Source of the DNA: a virus
Length of the DNA stretch: 64,000 nucleotides
Virus record (IMG/VR): IMGVR_UViG_3300009550_000009
Direction: 5' to 3' (one strand)
Below, in pieces: positions 2,978 through 52,090 of the stretch (position 1 is its first letter; every line of letters begins with the position of its first letter). The position numbers and the translations under genes are program-made. The notes under the pieces were generated by a model. That model was not told the DNA's origin. It did no database searches and saw only the letters and a list, made by a program, of their open reading frames with translations.

Positions 2978-4633
2978 ATGCCTACAGTTGAAAATATTTA
3001 TCTTGGCAATCCTAATTTAAAGAAAGCCAATACACCAATTGAATTTACACAAGAACAGGTATTAGAGTTTGTGGCATGTCGTCATGATCCTGTCTATTTT
3101 GCACAAAAATATATAAAGATAGTCACATTGGATCATGGATTGCAACCATTTGCAATGTATGATTTTCAAAAAAAATTAATTGAGAATTTCCATGAAAACC
3201 GTTTTAACATCTGTAAGATGCCTCGGCAGACGGGTAAATCTACAACAGTTGTATCTTATCTCCTACATTATGCAGTATTTAATGATAATGTTAATATTGC
3301 AATACTCGCTAACAAAGCCTCCACTGCAAGGGATCTTTTAGGTAGATTGCAATTAGCATATGAAAATTTACCCAAGTGGATGCAGCAAGGTATTCTTGCT
3401 TGGAACAAAGGTTCATTAGAATTAGAAAACGGATCAAAAATATTAGCAGCATCCACATCAGCATCAGCAGTTCGTGGAGGATCTTATAACGTCATATTCT
3501 TAGACGAATTTGCTTTCATTCCAAATCATATTGCAGATCAGTTCTTTGCATCTGTATATCCTACAATATCATCTGGACAAAGCACAAAAGTTATAATAGT
3601 ATCCACGCCACATGGTATGAATCATTTCTACCGTATGTGGCATGATGCTGAACGTTCAAAAAATGAATATGTTCCTACAGATGTTCATTGGTCGGAAGTT
3701 CCGGGTCGAGATGAAAAATGGAGAGAACAAACAATTGCAAACACATCTGAAGCTCAATTTAAAGTTGAGTTTGAATGTGAATTTCTTGGATCAGTTGATA
3801 CTTTGATTGCCCCAAGTAAATTAAGAAGTTTGGTATATGAGAATCCAATAAAAAGAAATGCTGGATTGGACGTATATGAAGATCCTGCTGTAAAGCATGA
3901 TTATGTTTGCACAGTTGACGTTGCTCGTGGAGTTGGAAATGATTACTCTGCGTTTGTAGTAATTGATATTACAACTTTCCCTCATAAGGTTGTGGCAAAA
4001 TATCGAAACAACGAAATAAAACCAATGCTGTTTCCCTCAATAATATATGAAGTATGCAAAAGTTATAACAATGCCTTTATATTATGCGAGGTGAATGATA
4101 TTGGTGATCAAGTTGCATCAATTCTCAATTTCGATATGGAATATGAAAATCTCTTGATGTGTTCAATGAGAGGTCGCGCTGGTCAAATTGTTGGGCAAGG
4201 TTTTTCTGGAAAGAAAACTCAACTTGGTGTAAAAATGTCTAAGACCGTCAAGAAAGTTGGATCGTTAAACCTAAAAACAATTGTTGAAGCAGATAAACTG
4301 ATATTTTGTGATTATGAAATATTAAGCGAACTTACAACATTCATACAAAAAAGTAATTCATTTGAAGCAGAGGAAGGATGTAATGATGACCTTGCCATGT
4401 GTCTCGTCATATATGCATGGTTAGTTCAGTGTGATTATTTTAAAGAACTTACTGATCAAGATGTCAGAAAAAGATTATATGAGGAGCAAAAAAATCAAAT
4501 AGAACAAGACATGGCTCCCTTTGGTTTCATGGACGATGGACTTGGCGAAGATACGTTCATTGATTCTGACGGTGATCGTTGGAATAAAGCTGACGAATAT
4601 GGAGACCGATCTTTTATGTGGGAGTATCGATGA
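2978..4633 (+). CDS. gp17: terminase large subunit gp17
   Basis: PRQTGKST Walker A, IFLDEFAF Walker B, DVARG and DDLAM nuclease motifs. Confidence 0.98.
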   Translation: MPTVENIYLGNPNLKKANTPIEFTQEQVLEFVACRHDPVYFAQKYIKIVTLDHGLQPFAMYDFQKKLIENFHENRFNICKMPRQTGKSTTVVSYLLHYAVFNDNVNIAILANKASTARDLLGRLQLAYENLPKWMQQGILAWNKGSLELENGSKILAASTSASAVRGGSYNVIFLDEFAFIPNHIADQFFASVYPTISSGQSTKVIIVSTPHGMNHFYRMWHDAERSKNEYVPTDVHWSEVPGRDEKWREQTIANTSEAQFKVEFECEFLGSVDTLIAPSKLRSLVYENPIKRNAGLDVYEDPAVKHDYVCTVDVARGVGNDYSAFVVIDITTFPHKVVAKYRNNEIKPMLFPSIIYEVCKSYNNAFILCEVNDIGDQVASILNFDMEYENLLMCSMRGRAGQIVGQGFSGKKTQLGVKMSKTVKKVGSLNLKTIVEADKLIFCDYEILSELTTFIQKSNSFEAEEGCNDDLAMCLVIYAWLVQCDYFKELTDQDVRKRLYEEQKNQIEQDMAPFGFMDDGLGEDTFIDSDGDRWNKADEYGDRSFMWEYR

Positions 4634-9983: not shown

Positions 9984-10220
9984 ATGGACGATTTAATGGA
10001 TATGATCATCGCTGATGAATCGCCGTCACAAATTAGTGATACGATTAAAGATGCTTTGTTTTCAAAATCAGCTGAGCGTGTTGATGCCTTTCGACCTCAA
10101 GTGTCATCATCAATTTTTGATAATGGTGAAGTAGAGGATGAAATAGAGGATGAAGTAGAAGCAGAGACTGAAACAGACGTAGAAGCTGAAGCAGATACTG
10201 AAATAGGTGACGAAGAGTAA
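9984..10220 (+). CDS. acidic prohead-core-like small protein
   Basis: Lies between gp20 and gp21 (T4 gp67/68 slot); highly acidic tail. Confidence 0.7.
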   Translation: MDDLMDMIIADESPSQISDTIKDALFSKSAERVDAFRPQVSSSIFDNGEVEDEIEDEVEAETETDVEAEADTEIGDEE

Positions 10221-10256: not shown

Positions 10257-10859
10257 ATGGCTTTAAGAACTGTCGGGACAGGGGCATCACTACCAATAAA
10301 AGTGGGTGTAGCGCAGACATCTTCGTTTTTCACAGTGCAATCAGGTTACATGCGTGTAGTCGCAAAAGGATCTGGTGCACATGTCACTATTGGAACCGAT
10401 GCTAGTGCAGCAATAACTGATTTGTATATTCATGCAGGCCCCGAAGGTGAAACTTTATCAATGACTAAGGCATCGCAAAGAGTTGTTGGTATAAGCACTG
10501 GAACAACAACTGTTCTCACTGCACCTGAAGGAACACATATGCCATTTGTTCCCGGTGACATCGTAACAGTTGAATTTGGTAGTAATGCATCTGTTGATAC
10601 TAATTACAGTGCAAAACTAACTGGTGGAGTATCAGTTCTTTCAGTTGATAATAACATTCCAAATGTTATATCAGATAACTTTGCTCGCAGTAACATTACT
10701 GTTGCAGCAGATACATCGGGTATTATCACAGCATTTAATTCAGCAGCAGATTCCACTGTAAGAAAAGTTTTAAAACTATCTTGCATTGCTGCAAAGGGTG
10801 AAGGTGCTGCTAATAGTGTATTCCATTTTCAACAAGTTCAAACTACAGGTAGTGCGTAA
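10257..10859 (+). CDS. putative virion structural protein
   Basis: Late promoter; Thr/Ser/Gly/Ala-rich beta composition; head operon. Confidence 0.65.
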   Translation: MALRTVGTGASLPIKVGVAQTSSFFTVQSGYMRVVAKGSGAHVTIGTDASAAITDLYIHAGPEGETLSMTKASQRVVGISTGTTTVLTAPEGTHMPFVPGDIVTVEFGSNASVDTNYSAKLTGGVSVLSVDNNIPNVISDNFARSNITVAADTSGIITAFNSAADSTVRKVLKLSCIAAKGEGAANSVFHFQQVQTTGSA

Positions 10860-11509
10860 TGAAACTGATTAGAGAAGAAATCGAAACCGTTGAATTTCTT
10901 GTCGAACAAAAGAACGGCAAAAAATCAATGTATATCGAAGGTGTATTCTTACAAGGAAACATTAAAAACCGTAATGGTAGAATGTATCCTATGGAAACTC
11001 TTCGTAAAGAGGTTTCTCGTTATAATGAGAATCACATACAATCTGGAAGAGCACTTGGTGAATTAGGTCATCCCGAAGGCCCAACTGTTAATCTAGACCG
11101 TGTTTCCCATAAAATTGTATCACTCAGAGAGAACGGATCCAATTTTATTGGAAAGGCAAAATTATTATCCACACCAATGGGTAAAATTGCGTCTTCTCTC
11201 GTCGAAGAAGGAGTCAAACTCGGAGTCTCATCTCGTGGAGTTGGATCTCTTAAAATGACAAGAGAGGGTATAAATGTAGTAGGAAGCGACTTTATGTTGG
11301 CGACTGCTGCAGATATAGTTGCCGACCCTTCCGCACCAGATGCTTTCGTTGAAGGAATCATGGAAGGAAAGGAGTGGGTATGGGATGGAGGAATACTTCG
11401 AGAGAAGTATGCTGAAAAAACATACAAACAAATTAATACATTAACAGATCAGAAAAAATTAGATGAGCAGAAATTGAACCTGTTCAACGACTTTTTGTCT
11501 AATTTATAA
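10859..11509 (+). CDS. gp21: prohead protease gp21
   Basis: NRNGRMYP, ALGELGHP, GVSSRGVGS, DIVADPSAPDA. Confidence 0.98.
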   Translation: MKLIREEIETVEFLVEQKNGKKSMYIEGVFLQGNIKNRNGRMYPMETLRKEVSRYNENHIQSGRALGELGHPEGPTVNLDRVSHKIVSLRENGSNFIGKAKLLSTPMGKIASSLVEEGVKLGVSSRGVGSLKMTREGINVVGSDFMLATAADIVADPSAPDAFVEGIMEGKEWVWDGGILREKYAEKTYKQINTLTDQKKLDEQKLNLFNDFLSNL

Positions 11510-23343: not shown

Positions 23344-25474
23344 GCATAAGCATGTAGAGACAGCGCAGTTCAATGTCCAGACTCGCGTATTGATTCTGCC
23401 TCTTTGGGAGAAAGCAAGTAATTCTGTATATGATATGTTGGTAGCGCATGAAGTTGGGCATGCGTTATTTACACCTAATGAAGATTATAGAGACAAAGTA
23501 AAAATACCTTTTGATTTCATAAATGTTTGCGAAGATGCTCGTATAGAGAAGTTGATGAAGCGTAAGTATCAGGGTCTTCCAAAAACATTTTATTATGGAT
23601 ATAGTGATCTTCATGATGATGATTTCTTTAATGTAGTAGATGTTGATTTTGAAAAATTTAATCTTGCTGATAAAGCAAATCTTCATTTCAAGATTGGTAA
23701 TTTTATTGATATAACATTTACATCAAAAGAGAAGGAGATTATTGACGAGATTGCTAACACAGAAACTTTTGATGAAGTTCTTGTAGTATCAGAGAAGTTA
23801 TATAATTACTGCAAGGAGAATATGGAGGAGCAGAAGAAGCAAGTTCAAGATCTTGATCTTCATATGACTCCACAAACAGGACAACCAGAATCTCCAGAGT
23901 CATCTGATAGTAATGATGATGGTGAGTTAGAAGAAGTTGATCAGCAAGTCACTCAATCAGAAACTAAACCACAAAATGATTTTGGTTCAGATGAAGGTGG
24001 TGATATGGTTACACCAGAGGATGAGCAATCTGATTCTCCTTATGATCCTGATTCTTCAGAACCACAAGTTGCAACTGCAGAAGAGTTGGAGAAGAGTTTA
24101 AAAGATTTAATTGCAAGTCATGATGGTAGAGAGAATATCTATGTTGAATTACCTGATGTTAAACTTGACAAAATTATTGAATCTAATAGTGATGTTCATG
24201 ATGTTATCGAAAAACATTTTGCATGGGAGTGGAGTAGAATTAAAGCAGATAGAGAGAAGAATGGATATTCATGTGTTGCAAATCCATTTGAAGAAATTGA
24301 TTCTGAATTTAATAATTTTAAAAAGAATGCAAGAAAGGAAGTTAATTATCTTGTTAAAGAGTTTGAGTGTAAGAAAGCTGCATCTGCATATGCTCGTGCT
24401 GCAGTAGCTCGCACTGGTGTATTGAATACATCAAAACTTCATACTTATAAGTTCAATGAAGATCTTTTCAAAAAAGTTACCATATTACCTGATGGTAAAA
24501 ATCATGGATTAGTATTCATTCTTGATTGGTCAGGATCAATGCAATATATCTTACAGGATACTTTAAAGCAACTTTATAATTTAATTTGGTTCTGCAGAAA
24601 AGTAAATATTCCCTTTGATGTATATGCTTTTTCAAATGAATTCAAACGTGATGAGGGTTGGGGTTATTCTCATAATTATGATACTGTTGCCTATGAGAAG
24701 AGAGAGAACATAATGGCAATTGATAGTTGTTTTTCTCTTATGCATTTTTTCTCAAGTGATATCAAAGGAAAAGATCTTGAACAACAAATGCTTAACATAT
24801 GGAGAGTTGCATCTTTATTCAGAGTATGGGGTCATGTAACTTATCCACGTAGACTTGCATTATCAGGAACGCCATTGAACGAATCATTAATCACTCTACG
24901 TCAAATTCTTCCAGAGTTCCAAAAGAAACATAACCTTGAAAAAGTTCAGTGTATTGTTCTTACTGATGGTGAAGCTGGGCATCTCTCATATCATGTGGAG
25001 GTTAAACGTTCTTGGGAAGATGAACCATACATGGGAACACGCGGTATCGTTCCCGAAGCGACATTTATACGTGACCGTAAACTTGGTTGTAATTATAAAA
25101 TTGGTTATAGATATACAGATTTTACAGATACTATTCTTCAAAATCTTCAAGATCTATTTCCAACAGTAAACTTTATCGGTATTCGAGTTATCGTTCCTAG
25201 AGCTGCATTATCTTTTGCAAGACATTTTACAACTGATGAAACAAAGTTAAATGTGATTGAGAAAGATTGGAAAAAAACAAAAAGTTTCAATATTGTTGAC
25301 TCTGCTTATGATGCATATTTTGTAATGTCATCAGTAAATCTTAATGACAATTCAGATTTTCAAGTAAAGGAAGATGCTACCAAGTCGCAGATTAAATCAG
25401 CATTCGTTAGATCACTCAAGACAAAAAAACTAAATAAAAAAGTATTGGGCGAATTTATTTCTTTAGTGGTATGA
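23276..25474 (+). CDS. metallopeptidase-VWA (CobT-like) protein
   Basis: HEVGH zincin motif, EDARIE, acidic linker, LDWSGSM MIDAS, GTPL, LTDGE; ATG 23276 follows CAGGA. Confidence 0.88.
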   Translation: MAVQYEIKSQLAKLLATEDLIVEHKHVETAQFNVQTRVLILPLWEKASNSVYDMLVAHEVGHALFTPNEDYRDKVKIPFDFINVCEDARIEKLMKRKYQGLPKTFYYGYSDLHDDDFFNVVDVDFEKFNLADKANLHFKIGNFIDITFTSKEKEIIDEIANTETFDEVLVVSEKLYNYCKENMEEQKKQVQDLDLHMTPQTGQPESPESSDSNDDGELEEVDQQVTQSETKPQNDFGSDEGGDMVTPEDEQSDSPYDPDSSEPQVATAEELEKSLKDLIASHDGRENIYVELPDVKLDKIIESNSDVHDVIEKHFAWEWSRIKADREKNGYSCVANPFEEIDSEFNNFKKNARKEVNYLVKEFECKKAASAYARAAVARTGVLNTSKLHTYKFNEDLFKKVTILPDGKNHGLVFILDWSGSMQYILQDTLKQLYNLIWFCRKVNIPFDVYAFSNEFKRDEGWGYSHNYDTVAYEKRENIMAIDSCFSLMHFFSSDIKGKDLEQQMLNIWRVASLFRVWGHVTYPRRLALSGTPLNESLITLRQILPEFQKKHNLEKVQCIVLTDGEAGHLSYHVEVKRSWEDEPYMGTRGIVPEATFIRDRKLGCNYKIGYRYTDFTDTILQNLQDLFPTVNFIGIRVIVPRAALSFARHFTTDETKLNVIEKDWKKTKSFNIVDSAYDAYFVMSSVNLNDNSDFQVKEDATKSQIKSAFVRSLKTKKLNKKVLGEFISLVV

Positions 25475-25956
25475 TCACATTCAAAGAATTCATGCAAGAG
25501 AGCAGTCTCTCTCGTATAAAAAGTAAATCAGATAAGAGTGGTATAGCAACTCTTTCGGGTGATCGTGGTGACAAATCAAGGAAAGAAAATCAAGCAAGAT
25601 CAAAACAATTGCAAAAAGATATTCGTGGTAAGTTTGGTAGAGGGCCAACTAAATTAAAGGGATCATATTTAGAAAATCCCGGTTCAAAAGATGAGAGAAA
25701 AGTAAAAGAGAAAAGTTATGCAATAGATCGTGGTAAGATGGGTAAAAGAAAATTCAAGAAAGAAGTTAAGAAGTTGGGTAAGAAGTATGGGCAGGATTCC
25801 GTATTAACACAAACTAAAAAAACTGCTACACTACATAGAACAAGAAAAGGTGGATTAGATAAAAAAGGAGAAAATGTCGGTAGGTTTAAACCACAAGGTA
25901 AAAACCCATACGGTCAATCACAAGTTAAAGGTAAAACTTTCGCATATGGAGATTAA
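25471..25956 (+). CDS. basic hypothetical protein with CTS-like leader MITFKEFMQE
   Basis: ESSLSRI..GSYLE..E.SY..KKYGQDSVL pattern of T4-like phages. Confidence 0.75.
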   Translation: MITFKEFMQESSLSRIKSKSDKSGIATLSGDRGDKSRKENQARSKQLQKDIRGKFGRGPTKLKGSYLENPGSKDERKVKEKSYAIDRGKMGKRKFKKEVKKLGKKYGQDSVLTQTKKTATLHRTRKGGLDKKGENVGRFKPQGKNPYGQSQVKGKTFAYGD

Positions 25957-44593: not shown

Positions 44594-45001
44594 ATGACAG
44601 TTGACACAGAAAAATACTTAGACTTTGTGCATGATGTAACAAGCGCAGAAAGTTTAGACTATGCTGCTCTCTTAACTCGTATGAATAAACTAGAGTTAGA
44701 AGATGACTGTAATCTATCACAGTTATTAACCGCTGCACTTGGTCTCACAGCAGAGTCTGGTGAATTTACTGAAGTAGTAAAGAAAATTATTCTTCAAGGA
44801 AAACCATATAATGAAAATAATGTCTTTCATATGAAGAGAGAACTAGGTGATATTTGTTGGTATATTGCTCAAGCATGTATGGCACTCGACACAACATTTG
44901 ATGAAATAATTGAGATGAATGTTGATAAATTAAAGAAAAGATATCCCGGTGGTGAGTTTAACGTGCATCAATCCGAAAATCGTAAGGCAGGAGATCTATA
45001 A
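44594..45001 (+). CDS. mazG: MazG-like nucleotide pyrophosphohydrolase
   Basis: GLTAESGEFTEVVKK..ELGDICWY..KLKKRYP. Confidence 0.93.
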   Translation: MTVDTEKYLDFVHDVTSAESLDYAALLTRMNKLELEDDCNLSQLLTAALGLTAESGEFTEVVKKIILQGKPYNENNVFHMKRELGDICWYIAQACMALDTTFDEIIEMNVDKLKKRYPGGEFNVHQSENRKAGDL

Positions 45002-45029: not shown

Positions 45030-45716
45030 ATGGGCTTAATGAATGATCTTGCAGGTTTATCTGCAGCATACGCCTCTATGAATAAGAGTGATCAAGGATA
45101 TCTTTTGACAAGAGCAGATAAAGATGGTAATACTCCTGCGTGGCAAAATCGTTATAAGATAAATGAGGCAACAGGTAAACCATTGTATATAATGGCAGAT
45201 CATCTTGTTGAGTCATTCGAGAATGAACTATTTCATAAAATTGATGAGGCTCTTGAGGAGTTAGATAAGTTAAACGAAGGAAAGATACCTGCAGGACTTA
45301 GAGCATACCTTGATAAGAAAAAAGGTAAAAAAGGTAATGGAAAAGATAATGGTAATGGGAAAGATCATGATGATGATAATGGAAATGGAAATGGTAAAGG
45401 GAAACCAGATTTCATAGATCTTGATAAAGATGGTGATAAAAAGGAGTCAATGAAAAAGGCTGCTAAAGATAAGAAAATGAAAGAGGAAAATTCTCTTTTA
45501 GATTCTGGTATTTTTTCTGAAGAAGAAATAACTGGTATTCTTTGGGGTGAGTTTGAGGAGAACAGACAAGTTGCTATGAATCCTGAGAAGTATAAAGATC
45601 CAGATGAATCTGATAAACCATATCGTCAGAGATCAAAAGCAGCAAGAATGAGAGATCCTGAGAGAGGAATCAACTCTCCTGCGTTCAAGAAGTTTATGGC
45701 AGACCGAGGAATGTGA
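45030..45716 (+). CDS. late modular protein (putative internal head protein)
   Basis: Charged modules separated by LVE/LNE/MKEE; DLDKDGD motif; late promoter. Confidence 0.7.
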   Translation: MGLMNDLAGLSAAYASMNKSDQGYLLTRADKDGNTPAWQNRYKINEATGKPLYIMADHLVESFENELFHKIDEALEELDKLNEGKIPAGLRAYLDKKKGKKGNGKDNGNGKDHDDDNGNGNGKGKPDFIDLDKDGDKKESMKKAAKDKKMKEENSLLDSGIFSEEEITGILWGEFEENRQVAMNPEKYKDPDESDKPYRQRSKAARMRDPERGINSPAFKKFMADRGM

Positions 45717-45766
45717 TATTCAATATTGTATGCTACAATATAAATATCTCAGATATTTAAATTACT

Positions 45767-46021
45767 ATGGCATTACATATGCGTGAGCAAATCCTAAGAG
45801 CATTGATTGCACATGCTCAAGGAGACATTGCAAAACATAGAGCAAATGTTGAAGTTTATCTTGAACATCCTGCAGGTGTTGGTGAGCACACTGACATACT
45901 AGAATCTATTGAAAAGGAATTAGATACTATTGCAAAGTATCAAGATCAGATAGATGTAATCAAGAAGTATTTCATGTCGTCTCAAACTATGTCTAATATT
46001 GACAAAAGATCGAGTGAGTAG
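45767..46021 (+). CDS. conserved hypothetical protein
   Basis: HAQGDI.KH.ANVEVYL..PAGVGEH.D. Confidence 0.75.
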   Translation: MALHMREQILRALIAHAQGDIAKHRANVEVYLEHPAGVGEHTDILESIEKELDTIAKYQDQIDVIKKYFMSSQTMSNIDKRSSE

Positions 46022-46025
46022 ATAG

Positions 46026-47477
46026 ATGGCTGATTCACCCAAATTATCAGAATCATCACAAGCATTATTTTGTGCTGTTGTTGATTATTTGGGTAAACCA
46101 ATTAATGGTAGAAATAGACCGGCAAATTATCCTGCTTTTAAAAGAGAATATGGATCAATAATTAATAGAGTAAAAAACAAAGTTAAAACTGGATCTGTTT
46201 CAGTGTCAAGTATTGAAAGATATTTAACGGAGAATAAAGACTGGTATGACTCATCAATTAATATAGCGAATGAACTTTTTAATGCAACAGCAAAAATATC
46301 TAGAAAAACTTACAATAGAATAAAACCAAAAGGAATAAGTTTGTTTTATATTAGAGGTGATAAAGGCACGAGAGATATCATGAGTGACATTGCACTTATT
46401 TGGAAATATACAAATACTGCTGTAAAAAAAAGAAACAGATTAGAAGGGATAAACGATTTAACATTTAACGATATAAACAAGTGGAGTCCAGCAGATATCT
46501 ATCTTGCCTCTCAAAAAGGTAGGATGGTTATAAGACAATTAGCCTCTGGAAAAGTAATGGGTAGTGGAATTAAAATTGGTAAAACAAATATTGATTCACT
46601 TACTGCTATGACAAGTTTTTCAGTATTGAACGCTTTATTAAAACAAATGATGGAGAATGGTGACATACTGCCACTGTCTTTAAAGAAAGCACCTAACAAG
46701 GATAGCGTTGTTATAAAAACAATAAATTTTATGGACAATGATGTTGCGAATGCTTTGAAAAAAAATGATATTAGATATCACGGTTATATATTTTCACAAA
46801 CACAGGACGTATTCAACTCAAAAGATGTTTATATTAAGATAACTACAGGCCCTTTTAAGTTGCAATTCAGAGATAAGGGTGGAACTGGTGGTGGACAAAA
46901 ACCCACTTTTTCTTATCAGTGTATAATATCTGGAGGAAAACAAGCTCTTGATGGTAGTCTTGCAGGTGATTCGATAGGTAATGTTATATTTCAAACAAAC
47001 CAATCTTTAGGAAGACAATTCTCTTCAGCAAGTCAGAGTAGAATAATAGACTCAGCTTTTAAGATTGCAAAAAATATGCAAAAAGAGATAGATGTTGATG
47101 GGGTTCTATCTAAATCAATAGAAAATACTATTTGTAGAAAAGTATATGAATATGCGGTGAAATACTCTAATACCGCGATAGGATCAATAAAATCCTTTTA
47201 CGAAGAATTAGTTAATCATCCTCAGTTTTCGAGGGGTGGCACATCTATCATGGTCAAGGAAGATGGTGGTAAGGTGAGACTTGAGAGTGAACTTTTAGTT
47301 GAAAGAGCAAGAACACAATTTTTATTTGGAAAGTTTATGGGTGGTAGATTGATAGAGGGCATGGAGAGATCAAAAAAAGACGCTGATGAAATAGCGATAA
47401 ATTTATTATTATATGCAGGATCAAGAACGGCTAAATCATCACCCCATGTTAAAGCATCTGATATCTCATCATTGTAA
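46026..47477 (+). CDS. hypothetical protein, possible PD-(D/E)xK-like nuclease
   Basis: 483-aa ORF; N-terminal E helix, KWSPADIY and PLSLKK motifs. Confidence 0.5.
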   Translation: MADSPKLSESSQALFCAVVDYLGKPINGRNRPANYPAFKREYGSIINRVKNKVKTGSVSVSSIERYLTENKDWYDSSINIANELFNATAKISRKTYNRIKPKGISLFYIRGDKGTRDIMSDIALIWKYTNTAVKKRNRLEGINDLTFNDINKWSPADIYLASQKGRMVIRQLASGKVMGSGIKIGKTNIDSLTAMTSFSVLNALLKQMMENGDILPLSLKKAPNKDSVVIKTINFMDNDVANALKKNDIRYHGYIFSQTQDVFNSKDVYIKITTGPFKLQFRDKGGTGGGQKPTFSYQCIISGGKQALDGSLAGDSIGNVIFQTNQSLGRQFSSASQSRIIDSAFKIAKNMQKEIDVDGVLSKSIENTICRKVYEYAVKYSNTAIGSIKSFYEELVNHPQFSRGGTSIMVKEDGGKVRLESELLVERARTQFLFGKFMGGRLIEGMERSKKDADEIAINLLLYAGSRTAKSSPHVKASDISSL

Positions 47478-47507
47478 ATCGCTAAATAAAGTATATAATA
47501 CCATCTT

Positions 47508-48782
47508 ATGAAAGGTTTTTCACGATTTTTAGTTGAAGCAGAAGAATCCAAAGTAGCCGCTCAAGCAAAAAGACTCAATCTAAAGAGTGATGGGCATGGC
47601 GGTTGGTTAGATGCTGGTGGAAAGTATGTTGCAAAAACAGAAAAAGGAAAACTAAAATTCTTTGGTAAGAGAGGTGGAGCAAAAGAAGATCCACAGACAC
47701 AAACTCGTAGACCAACACCAGAACCAATCAAAACTAAAGTTGCTGCAAGACCCGGACAAGTTGCAGCACCAGCAAAACCAGCACAACCAGAAACTGCAGC
47801 ACCTGTAAAGACAAAAAAACCTGATGAGGCAGAGACTGCAGAGGGAGATACAATTACAGTTGCGTTTGGTAGATTTAATCCACCAACTATAGGTCATGAA
47901 AAATTATTAAAAGCAGCACAAAAAGTTGCTGTGGGTGGTGAATTAAAAATATACCCATCAAGATCACAAGATCCAAAGAAAAATCCTCTTGATCCTGATA
48001 TGAAAGTTTCATTCATGAGAAAGATGTTTCCAGAGTTTGAAGAAAATATTATAAATGATTCAGAAATGAGATCAATATTTAATGTATTGGTTACAGCAGC
48101 AGAGGAAGGATATAAAAATGTTAATATTGTTGTTGGAGCAGATCGTCAAGCAGAGTTTGAAAATCTTGCAAACAAATATAATGGAGAACTATATGATTTT
48201 GATGAGATTAGAGTTATTTCTGCTGGCGTGAGAGATGCTGATGCTGAAGGAGTTGAAGGGATGTCGGCATCTAAAATGAGAAAAGCTGTAGTAGATGATG
48301 ATTTTAATTCATTTAAAACAGGAACACCAAGTTCTATAAAAGATGCAGATGCACAAGCTTTATATGATGCAGTTCGTTCTGGTATGAAGATTGCAAAGAA
48401 GAAAGCAGTTGCAGAATTATGGCAAATTGCACCTAAATGTGATCCAAGAGGTTTGAGAGAACAATATGTATCTGGTAATTTATATAAATTAGGTGATTAT
48501 GTTGAAAGTTTGAATACGGGACTGATAGGAAAAATAATTCGTCGTGGAACTAATCATTTAATATGTGTAACCGAAGAAAATTATATGTTTAAAACATGGA
48601 TAAAGGATGTCATGGAATATTCTGAAGTCAGAATGAGTCGTCGTATGAGAGATAAAACACACCCAAATTACTTAATTGGCACTTCAGGATATAGAAAAAA
48701 CGTTATGGATAAGATGGGTATGAAGAAAATACAGAACTTTGATATTAAGGAGTTCATAAATAAATACAGACTAAAAAAGTGA
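47508..48782 (+). CDS. HxGH nucleotidyltransferase ('cytidyltransferase') with CTS-like leader
   Basis: FGRFNPPTIGHEKL, KKNPL, VVGADR, SAGVRD, MSASKMR; N-terminus MKGFSRFLVE. Confidence 0.85.
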   Translation: MKGFSRFLVEAEESKVAAQAKRLNLKSDGHGGWLDAGGKYVAKTEKGKLKFFGKRGGAKEDPQTQTRRPTPEPIKTKVAARPGQVAAPAKPAQPETAAPVKTKKPDEAETAEGDTITVAFGRFNPPTIGHEKLLKAAQKVAVGGELKIYPSRSQDPKKNPLDPDMKVSFMRKMFPEFEENIINDSEMRSIFNVLVTAAEEGYKNVNIVVGADRQAEFENLANKYNGELYDFDEIRVISAGVRDADAEGVEGMSASKMRKAVVDDDFNSFKTGTPSSIKDADAQALYDAVRSGMKIAKKKAVAELWQIAPKCDPRGLREQYVSGNLYKLGDYVESLNTGLIGKIIRRGTNHLICVTEENYMFKTWIKDVMEYSEVRMSRRMRDKTHPNYLIGTSGYRKNVMDKMGMKKIQNFDIKEFINKYRLKK

Positions 48783-48783
48783 C

Positions 48784-50121
48784 ATGCCACAAGGAATATC
48801 GCCAAACCCATTAAACAAACTATCACAAATCTACTTAAATCAGATTGTTGAATCTGATTGTGATTGTGAAGGATGTGGTCAAGACCCATGCATTAAGTGT
48901 GGAAGAAGTCATCATATTGTGAATGAGCATCATAAGAAAGACGCAGATGGTAATACGATTCCTCATGAGGGTGAAGATGTTGATGAAGCAATGTATACAG
49001 GCCCTAACAAAGAAGATAGAAAGCAAATTAAAAAAATGGATGACCCTAGTTATGCTAAGAAGTTAGCAGACTATGAAAAGAATATGGATCCTAAGAAACG
49101 TCAGGCTCTTAAGGATAAAGCAACTAAGGGTATGAAGTTTACTCATGAAGCATTTTCTGACACAGGTATGGCAAAAGGATCTGGAAAACCATCTGGTGCT
49201 ATGAAAGATTTTCTTGATAAGAAAGCAAAGAAACTAGAAAAACAAAGAGCGTCACAATCTCAAGCTGCTAGAAATAATCCTCACTTTGATAGCACACAAC
49301 CATCACCATCAGGTAGAAATAAGTATATGGAATCTATTTCTAATTGGAGAGAAGATTTTATATGGGAAGAAGAAGTTGAAGGCCCCGATAATAAAGATAA
49401 TAAAAAAGTAACAGAGAAAAATATAAAAAATAAAATTGTTATTAATCCTAAATTAGGTGAGGCAGTTGAAAGTATGGGTGGACAACTGATTGATGTTGTT
49501 GAAATGGATATGGATAAAAAGGGTCAAGAGGATCCACAAATGAAATCAAAGATGCTTCGTCAAAGGCAACTTAAAAAACAAGTATTACTTCGTAAATTAC
49601 AGGCAGTAAGACAAACTGGTGGTGAAGACATTGTTGCATCATATGAACCAGACGGTGAACAACTTGATGAATATGGTAATCCAAGAGTAGGAATGAGGTT
49701 GAAAGTTGCTCGTGCGATTGATAAAGTAAATCCAAAACCAAAAGTAGGTAGTAAGAGAACTGCTATTTCAAACAAGTTGAAGATGTCTTCAATACGAGCA
49801 GAAACTAGAAGACAAAAACAAAAAGATAATCCATATTCAGTTGGTAAAAAAGTAAAGACTGCACTTGGAATGAGCACTGAAGACTACATTCCAGAAGAGG
49901 GATATGATCATTATAAAGATCGCATGGCTGAAAGGGGTATTGATATAAGTTCTCCTGATAAGAAAGATGCAACAACTATGCCAAGAAAACCAGAGAAACA
50001 ATCAAAAGGCATGACTGCTGCACAAAAAGCAGCAAAAGGTAAATCTGCGCTTGATATTGTGAAAGCAGACATTAGGAAAAAATATGGTAAAGGTGCCATC
50101 ATGGATATGAGTAAAAAATAA
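48784..50121 (+). CDS. late modular basic protein (putative polyprotein)
   Basis: Basic modules separated by acidic linkers ending IVE, VNE, VDE, SYEPDGEQLDE, IPEE. Confidence 0.75.
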   Translation: MPQGISPNPLNKLSQIYLNQIVESDCDCEGCGQDPCIKCGRSHHIVNEHHKKDADGNTIPHEGEDVDEAMYTGPNKEDRKQIKKMDDPSYAKKLADYEKNMDPKKRQALKDKATKGMKFTHEAFSDTGMAKGSGKPSGAMKDFLDKKAKKLEKQRASQSQAARNNPHFDSTQPSPSGRNKYMESISNWREDFIWEEEVEGPDNKDNKKVTEKNIKNKIVINPKLGEAVESMGGQLIDVVEMDMDKKGQEDPQMKSKMLRQRQLKKQVLLRKLQAVRQTGGEDIVASYEPDGEQLDEYGNPRVGMRLKVARAIDKVNPKPKVGSKRTAISNKLKMSSIRAETRRQKQKDNPYSVGKKVKTALGMSTEDYIPEEGYDHYKDRMAERGIDISSPDKKDATTMPRKPEKQSKGMTAAQKAAKGKSALDIVKADIRKKYGKGAIMDMSKK

Positions 50122-51866
50122 TGCCAGCACTTTCCAAAAAACAACAAAGATTTATGGGAATGGTTTATGCAACCAAAAAAGGTGAAATGGATAATCCGTC
50201 ACCTGAAGTTCAAAAGGCTGCAGACTCTATGAAAAAAAGTGATGCAAAAGATTTTGCATCTACAAAACATAAAGGTTTACCAAATAAAGTAGTGCAAAAG
50301 GAAGAATCAAATCCTCGTATTCCTCGCAAGAAGGGGCAACCAGCAGGTTCAAAAAAACATTCTGATTTATATACTGATGAAAATCCTAAAGGAACTATTC
50401 ATGGACTTGGTTTTAAGGATGTGGCTACTGCTAAAGCATCTGTCTCAAAAATACGTAATTCTTCAAGATCACATGCTCATAAAATTCAAGCAGCAGTTGC
50501 TATGGAACAAAGGGCAAGAGAAATGGGTAAAACCTCTGAAGCAGCAGTCTATAGAAAATTCATCAACACGATGAAGGAAAAGACAAAGAAGATGAATGAA
50601 GCGATAAATCCTGCACAACAGGCTGCTATTGCTATCTCTAAAAAGAATAGATTGCAAGATTTAAAAATTGTTAAGAAAAAAAAGAAATCTATGAGTGAGA
50701 AAAAAGATCATGAACACTCAATGATAAGATCTCAACTCTCCACTATCATGAGAGCATCACAGAGATTGAAGAAAAAAATGAAAGGTGAAGGTGATGTAGA
50801 AGCATGGGTTCAATCAAAGATTACTAAAGCAGCAGATTATATAGATACTGCAGCAGATTATGTAGATAGTGGTGAAGTAAACGAAGAAGGTTTACGGAAC
50901 TGGTTTGGTAAATCAAGCGGAACTACTAAGTCTGGACGCAAAGTAAAAGGTTGGGTTCAAGTTGGTGGTAAGTATGATGGTAAACCTTGTGCTCGCCAAC
51001 CCGGTCAGAAAACAACTCCTAAGTGCACCTCTTCATCAAAGAGAGCATCTATGAGTGATAAAGAAAGAGATAGTGCTCGTCGTCGTAAGGTCGCTGCTGA
51101 TCCCGGTCAACCACAAAAGTCTGGTGCAGCAAAACCTACCATGGTATCAACTGACCCCAAGAAAAAAATGAAAGAAGCAAAAGAGCTCCCTAAAAATGTA
51201 AAAGGGATTGCAAAAGAGCTTGATAAAGCAGTTGAATTGCATTCTAGTCAAGCAAAAAGGTTAAGAAAAGCTGGTATAAGTGAAGCAAAGGACAAAAAAG
51301 GTAAGGGTAGTGGCACAAAAGATGCTTGCTATCATAAAGTTAAGTCACGTTATTCAGTTTGGCCTAGTGCATATGCTTCAGGTGCTTTAGTTAAGTGTCG
51401 TAAAGTAGGTGCTGCTAACTGGGGTAACAGCACGAAAGAAGAGTTCGTGAAGGACGGAATCTCATTTCAACAGTTTCAGGAAAAGTGTTGGAAAGGTTAT
51501 GAAAAGAAAGGTATGAAGACGATGTTTGGTAAGAGATATCCAAACTGTGTCAAGAAAGAGGAGACTGAGGTAGTAAGAGAGGATGATATGAAGGGGATGA
51601 GCGTCAAGTCTGGTCATAAAAGACCCACAAAAAGTGGGGCTGGAATGACAAAAAAGGGTGTTGAGGCGTATCGCCGTAGAAATCCGGGGTCTAAATTAAA
51701 GACAGCGGTGACTACTCCTCCATCAAAACTAAAAGCCGGAAGTAAGTCTGCCAACAGAAGAAAGAGTTACTGTGCAAGAAGTGCAGGGCAAATGAAGAAG
51801 TTTCCTAAAGCAGCGAAAGATCCAGATAGCAGATTAAGGCAAGCACGAAGACGCTGGAACTGCTGA
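50121..51866 (+). CDS. late modular basic protein (putative polyprotein)
   Basis: About 9 Lys/Arg-rich modules delimited by xxE(E/A) linkers. Confidence 0.8.
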   Translation: MPALSKKQQRFMGMVYATKKGEMDNPSPEVQKAADSMKKSDAKDFASTKHKGLPNKVVQKEESNPRIPRKKGQPAGSKKHSDLYTDENPKGTIHGLGFKDVATAKASVSKIRNSSRSHAHKIQAAVAMEQRAREMGKTSEAAVYRKFINTMKEKTKKMNEAINPAQQAAIAISKKNRLQDLKIVKKKKKSMSEKKDHEHSMIRSQLSTIMRASQRLKKKMKGEGDVEAWVQSKITKAADYIDTAADYVDSGEVNEEGLRNWFGKSSGTTKSGRKVKGWVQVGGKYDGKPCARQPGQKTTPKCTSSSKRASMSDKERDSARRRKVAADPGQPQKSGAAKPTMVSTDPKKKMKEAKELPKNVKGIAKELDKAVELHSSQAKRLRKAGISEAKDKKGKGSGTKDACYHKVKSRYSVWPSAYASGALVKCRKVGAANWGNSTKEEFVKDGISFQQFQEKCWKGYEKKGMKTMFGKRYPNCVKKEETEVVREDDMKGMSVKSGHKRPTKSGAGMTKKGVEAYRRRNPGSKLKTAVTTPPSKLKAGSKSANRRKSYCARSAGQMKKFPKAAKDPDSRLRQARRRWNC

Positions 51867-51895: not shown

Positions 51896-52090
51896 ATGCT
51901 TTCATTTTTACTACCATTCGCATCAAAAATTGTATCTGATGCGGTGAATAAAATCCCTGAAAATGAGGAATTAGGGGATAAACTTATTGAAGTTTGTATA
52001 GTCATCCTTAAAAAAGCAGTTAAGTTAACAAAAACTGACATGGATGATAAACTTTTAGCGGAAGTCGAGAAGGCAATTCAGACCCGTTAA
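51896..52090 (+). CDS. small hypothetical protein
   Basis: MLSFLLPFA..LTKTDMDDKLL. Confidence 0.7.
   Translation: MLSFLLPFASKIVSDAVNKIPENEELGDKLIEVCIVILKKAVKLTKTDMDDKLLAEVEKAIQTR

Follow-up and report, generated by a model that had tools for sequence, protein, structure and literature searches.

Two overlapping, apparently late genes of a T4-like cyanomyovirus probably encode modular precursors of internal head cargo

The T4 internal proteins IPI, IPII and IPIII are single small proteins that carry a 10-residue leader and are cut once behind it; together with Alt, they are among the described systems closest to the one analysed here, and in T4 it is established that they are both cut and injected. 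Highly basic DNA-associated peptides are freed inside the adenovirus capsid by the viral maturation protease, which acts on the core precursors pVII and pX/mu; adenovirus differs in its unrelated lineage and protease, its single precursors and the lack of module shuffling. The T4 head protease has the specificity L/I-x-E, cuts a Glu-Ala bond in gp22 and converts core proteins into many fragments, which exit the head (PMC9026906). The giant phages phiKZ, 201phi2-1 and SPN3US hold many head-internal proteins (inner-body or ejection proteins) with several cut sites after Glu each, and their protease is a distant gp21 homologue that relies on minimal sequence determinants (PMC9026906). There, the motif is S/A/G-x-E, the cuts strip propeptides off large proteins instead of dividing strings of mini-modules, and no combinatorial reshuffling of 30-100-residue modules is described. 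Polyvalent proteins combine many unrelated domains in shuffled architectures and are expected to accompany the DNA into a new host; proteolysis was proposed to release their domains (Iyer et al. 2017, PMC5512222). They are large, with recognisable enzymatic domains and often an embedded peptidase.

We analysed a 64,000-nucleotide stretch of viral DNA (the window; IMG/VR record IMGVR_UViG_3300009550_000009), in which a first-pass annotation had pointed to two adjacent late ORFs built as chains of modules. Both are confirmed as genuine ORFs that overlap and are apparently late, and the virus is a T4-like cyanomyovirus. The stop of ORF1 and the start of ORF2 overlap in TAATG, and 2 nt separate the stop of the upstream gene from the start of ORF1. 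The locus and the other genes relevant to it are as follows.

48784-50121, + strand: ORF1, 445 aa; a 23-residue N-terminal leader, then variable modules
50121-51866, + strand: ORF2, 581 aa; T4-GC119 / PHROG 727; seven modules and two spacers
47508-48782, + strand: cytidylyltransferase/NMNAT-like gene (T4-GC190), adjoining ORF1 upstream
47508-47537, + strand: T4-type capsid targeting sequence of the cytidylyltransferase, residues 1-10
48755-48766, + strand: overlapping pair of N-ATAAATA motifs resembling late promoters, about 20 nt upstream of the ORF1 start
45739-45746, + strand: T4-type late promoter motif TATAAATA, at the head of the gene run 45767-51866
45030-45716, + strand: apparently late module-type protein, 228 aa, downstream of TATAAATA at 44997
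10859-11509, + strand: gp21 prohead protease, the candidate processing enzyme (Peptidase_S77, E 4e-34)
25471-25956, + strand: S-adenosylmethionine (SAM) lyase headed by a T4-type targeting leader; may be another cargo of this system
892-1251, + strand: 119-aa protein, leader matching T4 IPI; homologue of SSM2_108
9984-10220: acidic 78-aa protein

The late-promoter motifs at 45739 and 48755-48766 lie on the coding strand, and 19 of 20 copies of ATAAATA are on the + strand. TATAAATA occurs 5 times in total where chance predicts 7.7 copies, and only its strand and its position at gene starts are suggestive. Lysine makes up 15% of ORF1 (net charge +20) and 18% of ORF2, which also has 6.5% arginine (net charge +81).

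Our preferred reading (probability about 0.62) is that both ORFs encode precursors of cargo carried inside the head. Such cargo would be a new variant of the T4 internal proteins. The likeness to T4 comprises a homologous S77 protease, the hydrophobic-x-Glu motif and the 10-residue leader on neighbouring cargo genes, as well as apparently late expression, basic virion proteins and a hyperplastic locus. The differences are that several modules follow one another in a chain, each preceded by its own site, that the leader of ORF1 is longer and of another kind while ORF2 has none that is recognisable, that the cargo parts share no sequence similarity, and that cutting and injection, proven in T4, are here proposed. 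Like polyvalent proteins, these ORFs contain several unrelated domains in shuffled architectures, but their modules are tiny, basic and mostly non-enzymatic, and the proposed protease acts in trans. Pfam detects two DUFs in ORF2 and no domain in ORF1, and thus neither a peptidase nor any of the domains typical of polyvalent proteins, such as the zincin-like metallopeptidase, ART, helicase or primase; Iyer et al. 2017 (PMC5512222) mention neither cyanophages nor these proteins. In the literature we found no paper describing such module-chain head-cargo proteins, none dealing with cyanophage internal proteins or a targeting sequence for them, and no experimental cleavage data for these proteins.

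ORF2 matches PHROG 727 over residues 63-581 (E 5e-97), and its blocks are 47-73% identical to S-SM2 SSM2_109, S-SCSM1 gene 29 and P-SSM4 gene 160. It is composed of the following units.

50121-50306, + strand: M1, a DUF3008-like three-helix unit, residues 1-62
50307-50600, + strand: M2, residues 63-160
50601-50699, + strand: basic spacer, residues 161-193, C-terminal M-S-E
50700-50888, + strand: M3, helical, residues 194-256
50889-51176, + strand: M4, residues 257-352, with Cys290 and Cys302
51177-51284, + strand: helical spacer, residues 353-388, C-terminal I-S-E
51285-51482, + strand: M5, residues 389-454, with Cys403 and Cys426
51483-51581, + strand: M6, a beta-hairpin closed by Cys456-Cys476, residues 455-487
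51582-51863, + strand: M7, DUF6321, residues 488-581, with Cys551 and Cys581

The cysteine pairs of M4 to M7, and five cysteines at residues 26-39 of ORF1, had been noted before and are present. The assignment of DUF6321 to M7 is clear (Pfam 43.4 bits, cut-off 28.5), and that of DUF3008 to M1 is borderline (23.5 bits, just below the cut-off of 24.0). The Atlas cluster that contains DUF6321 also includes DUF5872, and M5 is presumably the DUF5872 part of this cluster. AlphaFold yields no global fold for ORF1 (pTM 0.18, mostly isolated helices) or ORF2 (pTM 0.26), which speaks against a single predicted fold, and confident modelling is restricted to separate modules. A Foldseek search of the ORF2 model, a set of unconnected small modules, against the PDB gave no match below E 0.7.

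Relatives were compared with composition-adjusted BLAST; uncorrected BLAST aligned meaninglessly through the Lys-rich spacers. Among 45 non-redundant relatives of ORF2, the order M1-M2-M3-M4 occurs beside M1-M3-M2-M4, and M5-M6 beside M6-M5, together with duplicates and subsets; M3 thus precedes M2 in many relatives instead of following it, and M5 and M6 are swapped in some. Near-identical blocks are fused to differing partners. M5 with M6 recurs in 3666 representative clusters; the proteins are 157-892 aa long, and the position within them ranges from 1 to 655. M1 is N-terminal in all 166 proteins with the M1 start motif, one homologue (P0165) has a second, internal copy, and M7 is C-terminal in all copies read. 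Modules of ORF1 are present within ORF2-type proteins, and P-SSM4 gene 156 combines modules from both. The description of the ORFs in the first-pass annotation as chains of unrelated modules holds for the separable chain, but not all modules are 'unrelated', as ORF1 and ORF2 share one module pool.

Module order is not invariant, an outcome that would have spoken against the reading of the first-pass annotation, and modules also exist as stand-alone genes in relatives. Several genes of one metagenomic contig (P0152, L009) have frameshift-like breaks, and short metagenomic matches alone were therefore not taken as stand-alone genes; the evidence comes from isolate genomes and full-length proteins. 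DUF6321 forms a small stand-alone gene, probably a non-virion one, that encodes 92 aa in a pelagiphage and 83 aa in a Methylophilales phage. The C-terminal module of the 228-aa protein (45030-45716) is a separate gene in P-SSM4, starting M-L-S-F-K-S-F.

Units of ORF2 end in Glu at residues 62, 160, 193, 255/256, 352, 388, 454 and 487. All Glu sites proposed from the first reading of the sequence are present as positioned, but T-K-E-E (residues 445-448) lacks a hydrophobic P3 and lies off a module boundary. The conserved junction, hydrophobic-x-Glu, agrees with the published L/I-x-E specificity of T4 gp21 (PMC9026906), as had been suggested. Before each module start there is a hydrophobic-x-E(E), regardless of the upstream module. 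The motif lies no more than 14 residues away from 134 of 145 internal module starts, and in a far more diverse sample it stands at a fixed offset in 112/117 (M5) and 126/126 (M6) distinct contexts. P3 is M, V, I, L, F or Y, P2 almost any residue and P1 constantly Glu. In the single sequences of the window, the motif count exceeds chance weakly (10 against 6.0 +/- 2.1 and 8 against 5.3 +/- 2.1, or 1.3-1.9 sd), and significance rests on the family comparison. There, module cores contain 2 sites against 55 +/- 7 expected and the remaining sequence 321 against 185 +/- 12, and after merging of identical contexts the motif is carried by 1 of 112 distinct Glu contexts inside modules and 255 of 815 outside (p 1e-6 and 2e-19), statistics that are not fully independent because the cores were delimited on this ORF2 and its relatives are homologous to it. 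The adjacent folded enzyme shows no such avoidance (9 sites against 7.9 expected).

The junctions could instead belong to virion proteins that stay uncut as beads on a string, for example DNA-condensing, histone-like proteins, with the motif as an N-terminal cap or the end of a linker helix; we regard this as possible but rather doubtful. Since the motif has only two determinants and a fixed offset to the module, it could be an N-terminal module cap. AlphaFold helices terminate exactly at three ORF2 junctions (residues 160, 385 and 454), a protein so positively charged could bind DNA unprocessed, and detection of homologues in virions is uninformative about their size. The starts of genes argue against this view. 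First-position or stand-alone copies of M2 begin M-S-N-P-R, at the residue directly after the junction Glu-Glu (as seen in S-SM2 SSM2_109), and proteins with M5 first start exactly at the predicted P1' residue, so that for both modules the gene start coincides with the predicted scissile bond. These copies lack the element, and the module thus does not need it. Freedom at P3 and P2 with a fixed Glu at P1 also argues against a structural cap, as does motif avoidance within modules that far exceeds what composition predicts; in addition, the same phage has a T4-type protease and T4-type leaders ending in the same motif.

ORF1 starts with a leader of a second type, followed in this phage by a small cysteine-rich insertion.

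48784-48852, + strand: ORF1 leader, second leader type, residues 1-23
48853-48927, + strand: Cys-rich knuckle, 25 residues with 5 Cys, between leader Glu23 and the next conserved block

The core of the leader reads N-P-L-N-[KD]-[IL]-S-x-[VI]-Y-L-x-Q-[IV]-x-E. It is near-invariant between phages, whereas the downstream sequence varies, and its final seven residues have Y(-6), I/V(-2) and E(0) in common with the T4 leader. The knuckle terminates in an I-V-N-E site of its own and is absent from most homologues in the alignment. Modules inserted in relatives of ORF1 are flanked by duplicated junctions, and the knuckle likewise lies between two such sites. Conserved hydrophobic-x-Glu sites occur after residues 23, 48, 68, 122, 226, 240, 296 and 371/372, all but 240 having been listed at first reading; several lie inside wholly conserved blocks, so that conservation there is not specific to the motif.

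The proposed enzyme is indeed a Peptidase_S77 member, 40% identical to T4 gp21. The alignment shares G-E-L-x-H-P and G-V-S-S-R-G, which we take to hold the catalytic His and Ser. L-M-E57 in gp23 of this phage aligns with the T4 gp23 maturation site, where the cut falls after Glu65. Using the T4 IPIII and IPI leaders from NC_000866, we scanned the 64-kb window for the T4 pattern, an N-terminal leader of 10-19 residues in which positions 4 and 7 are aromatic, position 8 is L/I and position 10 is Glu. It heads three genes, at 892, 25471 and 47508. A leader-like start at 4025-4633 was set aside as probably lying at a Met within a longer gene. The 892-1251 protein begins with the same seven residues as T4 IPI and has Leu8 and Glu10, and its homologue SSM2_108 abuts T4-GC119 in S-SM2. 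The cytidylyltransferase leader is retained in 77/77 loci. ORF1 and ORF2 themselves carry no recognisable T4-type leader; one is present on some ORF2-type proteins (P0058) and on the split P-SSM4 gene 158, which has ORF1 modules. P-SSM4 gene 157, the separate form of the C-terminal module of 45030-45716, has the two aromatic positions and lacks the L/I-x-E end.

Packaging of ORF1/ORF2-type proteins is well supported. In virions purified from S-SM1, the homologue T4-GC119 is represented by 13 peptides (PMC3037559, Table S8), and it is a 'virion protein' of S-SCSM1, a label based by that phage's paper on mass spectrometry. Homologues of the cytidylyltransferase are virion proteins in S-SM1, S-SCSM1 and S-CREM2, and the genes flanking it in S-SM1 (T4-GC 1453, 1454 and 1455) were all detected in virions. 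The SAM hydrolase of S-CREM2, a homologue of 25471-25956 that bears the targeting sequence, is represented by 19 unique virion peptides. These published virion proteomes are tryptic searches reported without peptide positions.

It is unlikely that the ORFs encode scaffold or core components that gp21 cuts like T4 gp22, gp67 and gp68, with most pieces expelled before DNA packaging. Fragments of T4 core proteins do leave the head, much of ORF1 is predicted to be disordered or helical, its numerous conserved sites and acidic segments recall a scaffold, and a strongly basic chain might find partners in the very acidic gp22 and in the 78-aa protein at 9984-10220, which is also acidic. However, the slot is optional, 14 loci running straight from the cytidylyltransferase to the 52150-type gene, and T4-GC119 varies from 276 to 2985 nt and is absent from 1 of 16 genomes, which is odd for an assembly component. 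Stand-alone module genes occur in phages of unrelated head architecture, the fusion pool also includes enzymes (the cytidylyltransferase, DUF192 and the SAM lyase), and mature virions still contain the homologues. Less likely still, the shared junction element would matter only in the DNA, as a microhomology joint at which recombination shuffles modules, and would be without function in the protein. Shuffling is rampant and many junctions read M-K-E-E or M-N-E-E, which would give short A/G-rich repeats, but the amino-acid pattern persists between relatives that are less than 50% identical, motif avoidance within modules is left unexplained, and with P3 and P2 variable a constant Glu codon is too little for homology-guided exchange.

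Because the modules are joined at a T4-type head-protease motif, loading of the head-cargo precursors into the capsid and chopping into small peptides are probable, and cutting by gp21 at the junctions is a strong inference from the sequence comparisons. ORF1 and ORF2 would be synthesized late, alongside the leader-tagged cytidylyltransferase. ORF1 would enter the prohead core via its conserved leader of about 20 residues; for ORF2 we can only guess at the DUF3008 module, or at attraction of the +81 protein to a very acidic scaffold. Once inside the head, gp21 (S77) would cut after the Glu of the hydrophobic-x-Glu preceding every module, giving about nine predicted pieces from ORF1 and about nine from ORF2, the latter of 3.6-11 kDa and eight of them basic (pI 9.5-11.4). 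The basic pieces would remain on the packaged DNA and reach the next host along with it, although retention of pieces of this size is uncertain, since most small T4 cleavage products exit the head. The peptides may neutralise DNA charge or act on host defences.

More tentatively, the locus may represent a programmable head-cargo system, in which two interchangeable leaders and one protease grammar allow any small protein or enzyme to be loaded, released as a piece of its own and delivered along with the DNA, with ORF1 and ORF2 as combinatorial mini-protein libraries. The enzymes carried may then include the NMNAT-like transferase, the SAM lyase and DUF192, disulfide- or metal-stabilised basic mini-proteins may protect DNA or block defence in the first seconds of infection, and a host arms race may drive the reshuffling.

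T4-like cyanophages are among the most abundant viruses of the ocean, and cyanomyoviruses kill a large share of its main primary producers. The genes described here are very common (thousands of clusters at 50% identity) and are annotated as 'hypothetical' or 'virion protein'. If our reading is true, it would account for the non-structural enzymes that recur in cyanophage virion proteomes, including the NMNAT-like transferase and the SAM hydrolase, whose entry into the virion was left open by the authors of those proteomes. It would extend the T4 targeting-and-processing rule over a deep branch of the T4 superfamily, add a polyprotein strategy that is unusual among tailed phages, and supply a natural set of targeting tags and cleavage sites.

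Nucleotide and protein searches identify the window as part of a T4-like marine cyanomyovirus of the Kyanoviridae, and the closest isolates across it are Synechococcus and Prochlorococcus phages including Bellamy, S-SM2, P-SSM4 and P-TIM68. Its head module contains gp20, a 78-aa acidic protein, a DUF7243 protein, gp21, an acidic gp22 and gp23. The gp21 is a Peptidase_S77 (E 4e-34) with 40% identity to T4 gp21; in the alignment both have the blocks G-E-L-x-H-P and G-V-S-S-R-G, which we take to be the catalytic His and Ser motifs. L-M-E57 of the window gp23 aligns with Glu65 of T4 gp23, the residue after which T4 gp23 is cut on maturation; an Asp in place of the Glu at P1 blocks T4 processing. 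T4 gp21 cleaves after the Glu of L/I-x-E, and gp22 is cleaved at a Glu-Ala bond (PMC9026906). The putative substrates and their companions in the window are as follows.

892-1251, + strand, candidate small internal head protein of 119 aa; residues 1-7 identical to T4 IPI, Leu at position 8, Glu at 10
25471-25956, + strand, S-adenosylmethionine (SAM) lyase of 161 aa (PF23780, 2.5e-18)
45030-45716, + strand, late protein of 228 aa with Gly/Asn/Asp-rich spacers and joints of the K-M-K-E-E type
47508-48782, + strand, cytidylyltransferase/NMNAT-like protein (gene cluster T4-GC190) with a T4-type leader, directly upstream of ORF1
48784-50121, ORF1, 445 aa
50121-51866, ORF2, 581 aa

ORF1 and ORF2 are the only long ORFs in their region. 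ORF1 starts 2 nt past the stop codon of the preceding gene, and its own stop overlaps the start of ORF2. Both products are Lys-rich, with a net charge of +81 for ORF2, and all Glu sites and Cys pairs given for them in the first-pass annotation were found in place. The presence of one conserved Cys pair per module suggests disulfide- or metal-stabilised mini-proteins. ORF2 matches PHROG 727 (5e-97), while other stretches match a dozen further PHROG families; its C-terminus is DUF6321 and its N-terminus, at borderline significance, DUF3008. Homologues in S-SM2 and P-SSM4 are labelled T4-GC119, a gene cluster that spans 276 to 2985 nt among 16 genomes and is represented by 13 peptides in purified S-SM1 virions (Sullivan et al. 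2010, PMC3037559). For the S-SCSM1 homologue the GenBank annotation is virion protein, a label based on mass spectrometry in the S-SCSM1 paper. The ORF1 family, with at least 1860 proteins, shows the same modular behaviour as that of ORF2, for which block boundaries were obtained from composition-adjusted BLAST of 240 relatives.

ORF2 residues 1-62, module M1
ORF2 residues 63-160, module M2
ORF2 residues 194-256, module M3
ORF2 residues 257-352, module M4
ORF2 residues 389-454, module M5
ORF2 residues 455-487, module M6
ORF2 residues 488-581, module M7
In between ORF2 modules, two basic spacers

Module order is far from invariant. Among 45 non-redundant ORF2 relatives there are 27 distinct architectures, including M1-M3-M2, M6-M5, duplications and many subsets, and some relatives are 98-99% identical across ~60% of their length and unrelated elsewhere. 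M5 and M6 alone match 3666 representative clusters, in proteins of 157-892 aa and at positions from residue 1 to residue 655. M7 occurs as a stand-alone gene in pelagiphage HTVC027P (92 aa) and in a Methylophilales phage (83 aa), and in Atlas clusters, all of them viral, DUF6321 is fused to DUF5872, DUF192, DUF5661 or cytidylyltransferase. ORF1 modules are found within ORF2-type proteins (at 90% identity in the relative P0083), and in P-SSM4 gene 156 both M5 and M6 are joined to a block from ORF1; the module pool is therefore common to the two ORFs. Nor is a single fold predicted: AlphaFold gives a pTM of 0.26 for ORF2 and 0.18 for ORF1, with confidence limited to separate small units, and no PDB match was found for the ORF2 model.

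Taken alone, the single ORF1 and ORF2 sequences do not prove motif enrichment, their hydrophobic-x-Glu triplets lying 1.3 to 1.9 sd over shuffles. We anchored a survey of the junctions, i.e. the module boundaries, on conserved motifs just within each module and tabulated the residues upstream. Hydrophobic-x-Glu, often with Glu-Glu, precedes module starts regardless of the upstream module or spacer, and lies no more than 14 residues from the start in 134 of 145 internal cases. In a far more diverse representative library the motif stands upstream at a sharply fixed offset, for M5 in 112 of 117 distinct contexts and for M6 in 126/126. Between module cores the motif is enriched (321 observed, 185 +/- 12 expected from shuffles) and inside them it is avoided (2 against 55 +/- 7), and with identical contexts collapsed a hydrophobic residue stands at P3, two residues before the Glu, in 1/112 core Glu (background 14.4%, p 1e-6) and 255/815 non-core Glu (background 18.2%, p 2e-19); with cores delimited on this ORF2 and homology among the relatives, these counts overstate independence. 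The adjoining folded enzyme shows no such avoidance. As the pattern extends over clusters below 50% identity, it is hard to attribute to chance.

Genes that open with M2 or M5 begin exactly one residue past the junction Glu position, and the motif is therefore part of the joint and not of the module. A longer junction, Y-E-P-E-G-E-Q-L/V-D-E, is duplicated on either side of inserted modules in ORF1 relatives. Many junctions continue after hydrophobic-x-Glu with Ala, Ser, Gly or Lys.

T4 internal proteins carry a leader with aromatic residues at 4 and 7, Leu or Ile at 8 and Glu at 10, the first two positions being used for targeting and the last two for processing (review, PMC9026906). With the T4 IPIII and IPI leaders from NC_000866 as reference, the pattern was found to head three window genes (892-1251, 25471-25956 and 47508-48782). 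In the cytidylyltransferase the leader M-K-x-F-x-x-F-[L/I/F]-x-E is kept in 77/77 viral-contig loci, followed by Ala or Ser with one exception (Leu), while over the same loci the enzyme part falls to 43% identity. The 892-1251 protein shares 50% identity with S-SM2 gene 108, which in that phage lies directly beside the T4-GC119 gene and has a leader-type start, as does S-SCSM1 gene 30, likewise next to T4-GC119. Similar starts head P0058, a full ORF2-type protein, and two split genes of P-SSM4: gene 158, with ORF1 modules, and, more weakly, gene 157, with the C-terminal module of the 45030-45716 protein.

The SAM lyase has Phe at 4 and 7, Met at 8 and Glu at 10, and may be an anti-restriction enzyme that is packaged and injected. 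Purified S-CREM2 virions yielded 19 unique peptides of its homologue, a SAM hydrolase headed by a leader of this kind. A further match of the window lyase is to the C-terminal portion of PHROG 26015, a family that ORF1 and ORF2 match in other places. The S-CREM2 hydrolase (ORF6, 1459-2703 of S-CREM2 DNA L091) has a ~240-residue Lys-rich C-terminal extension with several hydrophobic-x-Glu sites, and looks like an enzyme-plus-modules polyprotein.

In most loci the gene after the cytidylyltransferase begins with ~20 conserved residues, ..N-P-L-N-D-I-S-x-V-Y-L-E-Q-V-x-E, and then diverges completely; residues 1-23 of ORF1 represent this second leader. Its last seven residues have Tyr(-6), Glu(-4), Ile/Val(-2) and Glu(0) in common with the T4 leader. 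We infer from the invariant start ahead of hypervariable cargo that it is a targeting peptide. In the window a 25-residue Cys knuckle with its own I-V-N-E is inserted exactly past Glu23.

The recurrent gene order is mazG, variable genes, cytidylyltransferase, ORF1 type, ORF2 type, a 64-aa gene and a 52150-type gene, and the slot after the cytidylyltransferase may be empty or hold one gene or both types. The conserved 64-aa gene (51896-52090, + strand; PHROG 402, T4-GC424) follows ORF2 in many relatives. In S-SM1 the genes flanking the cytidylyltransferase (T4-GC 1453, 1454 and 1455), and in S-CREM2 both genes after it, were detected in virions. Upstream of the enzyme, a 483-aa protein (46026-47477, + strand) shows weak similarity to P-SSM4 gene 153 (23% identity, E 3e-5); at the equivalent position, S-SM1 gene 188 (T4-GC1453; 447-1280 of S-SM1 DNA L090) is virion-detected. 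The last 58 residues of the 45030-45716 protein share 67% identity with P-SSM4 gene 157 (70 aa, starting M-L-S-F-K-S-F), and the protein is probably part of one cargo set with ORF1 and ORF2. Late-promoter motifs lie on the coding strand at 44997, 45739, 48755-48766 and 52109. Across the window ATAAATA is under-represented (20 copies, 33 +/- 5 in shuffles), with 19/20 on the + (coding) strand and several ~20-40 nt ahead of late gene starts (7638, 9948, 10224, 44998, 45740, 48756, 52110).

ORF1 and ORF2 had been proposed to be head-packaged polyproteins cut by gp21 after Glu into effector peptides. Our data support this in part: the shuffled modular build, the lack of a single fold and the conserved hydrophobic-x-Glu junction stand, and the cuts are predicted. 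We put the probability that the two proteins are processed head cargo at roughly 0.6. Judging by the promoter-like motifs, they would be made late. The cytidylyltransferase would enter the prohead core by its T4-type leader, in line with virion detection of its homologues, and ORF1 by its own conserved leader. Position-specific conservation, avoidance within modules, natural gene starts and a homologous protease argue that gp21 would cut each junction, in ORF2 after residues 62, 160, 193, 255/256, 352, 388, 454 and 487, predicting about nine ORF2 pieces of 3.6-11 kDa, eight with pI 9.5-11.4, and about nine from ORF1, several of them acidic. That the chains instead stay uncut, as beads on a string, is a real but distinctly less probable alternative. 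Charge and virion detection of homologues suggest that the pieces of a processed cargo would stay with the DNA and be delivered into the host; that ORF1 and ORF2 have a scaffold-like role is improbable. A junction element acting purely as a DNA joint is the least credible reading.

Compared with the T4 internal-protein system, processed cargo of this kind would be built as polyproteins, in which mini-modules are shuffled and a second leader is used. Such a form appears to be undescribed in the searchable literature, in which we also found no mention of the T4 leader in cyanophages. The ORF1/ORF2-type architecture is very widespread, and the proposal can be tested with existing data. The T4-GC190 enzyme has been detected in virions of S-SM1 (25 peptides), S-SCSM1 and S-CREM2, and the authors of the virion studies left open the route by which such enzymes reach the particle; the leader on the cytidylyltransferase would account for its recurrent detection in cyanophage virion proteomes.
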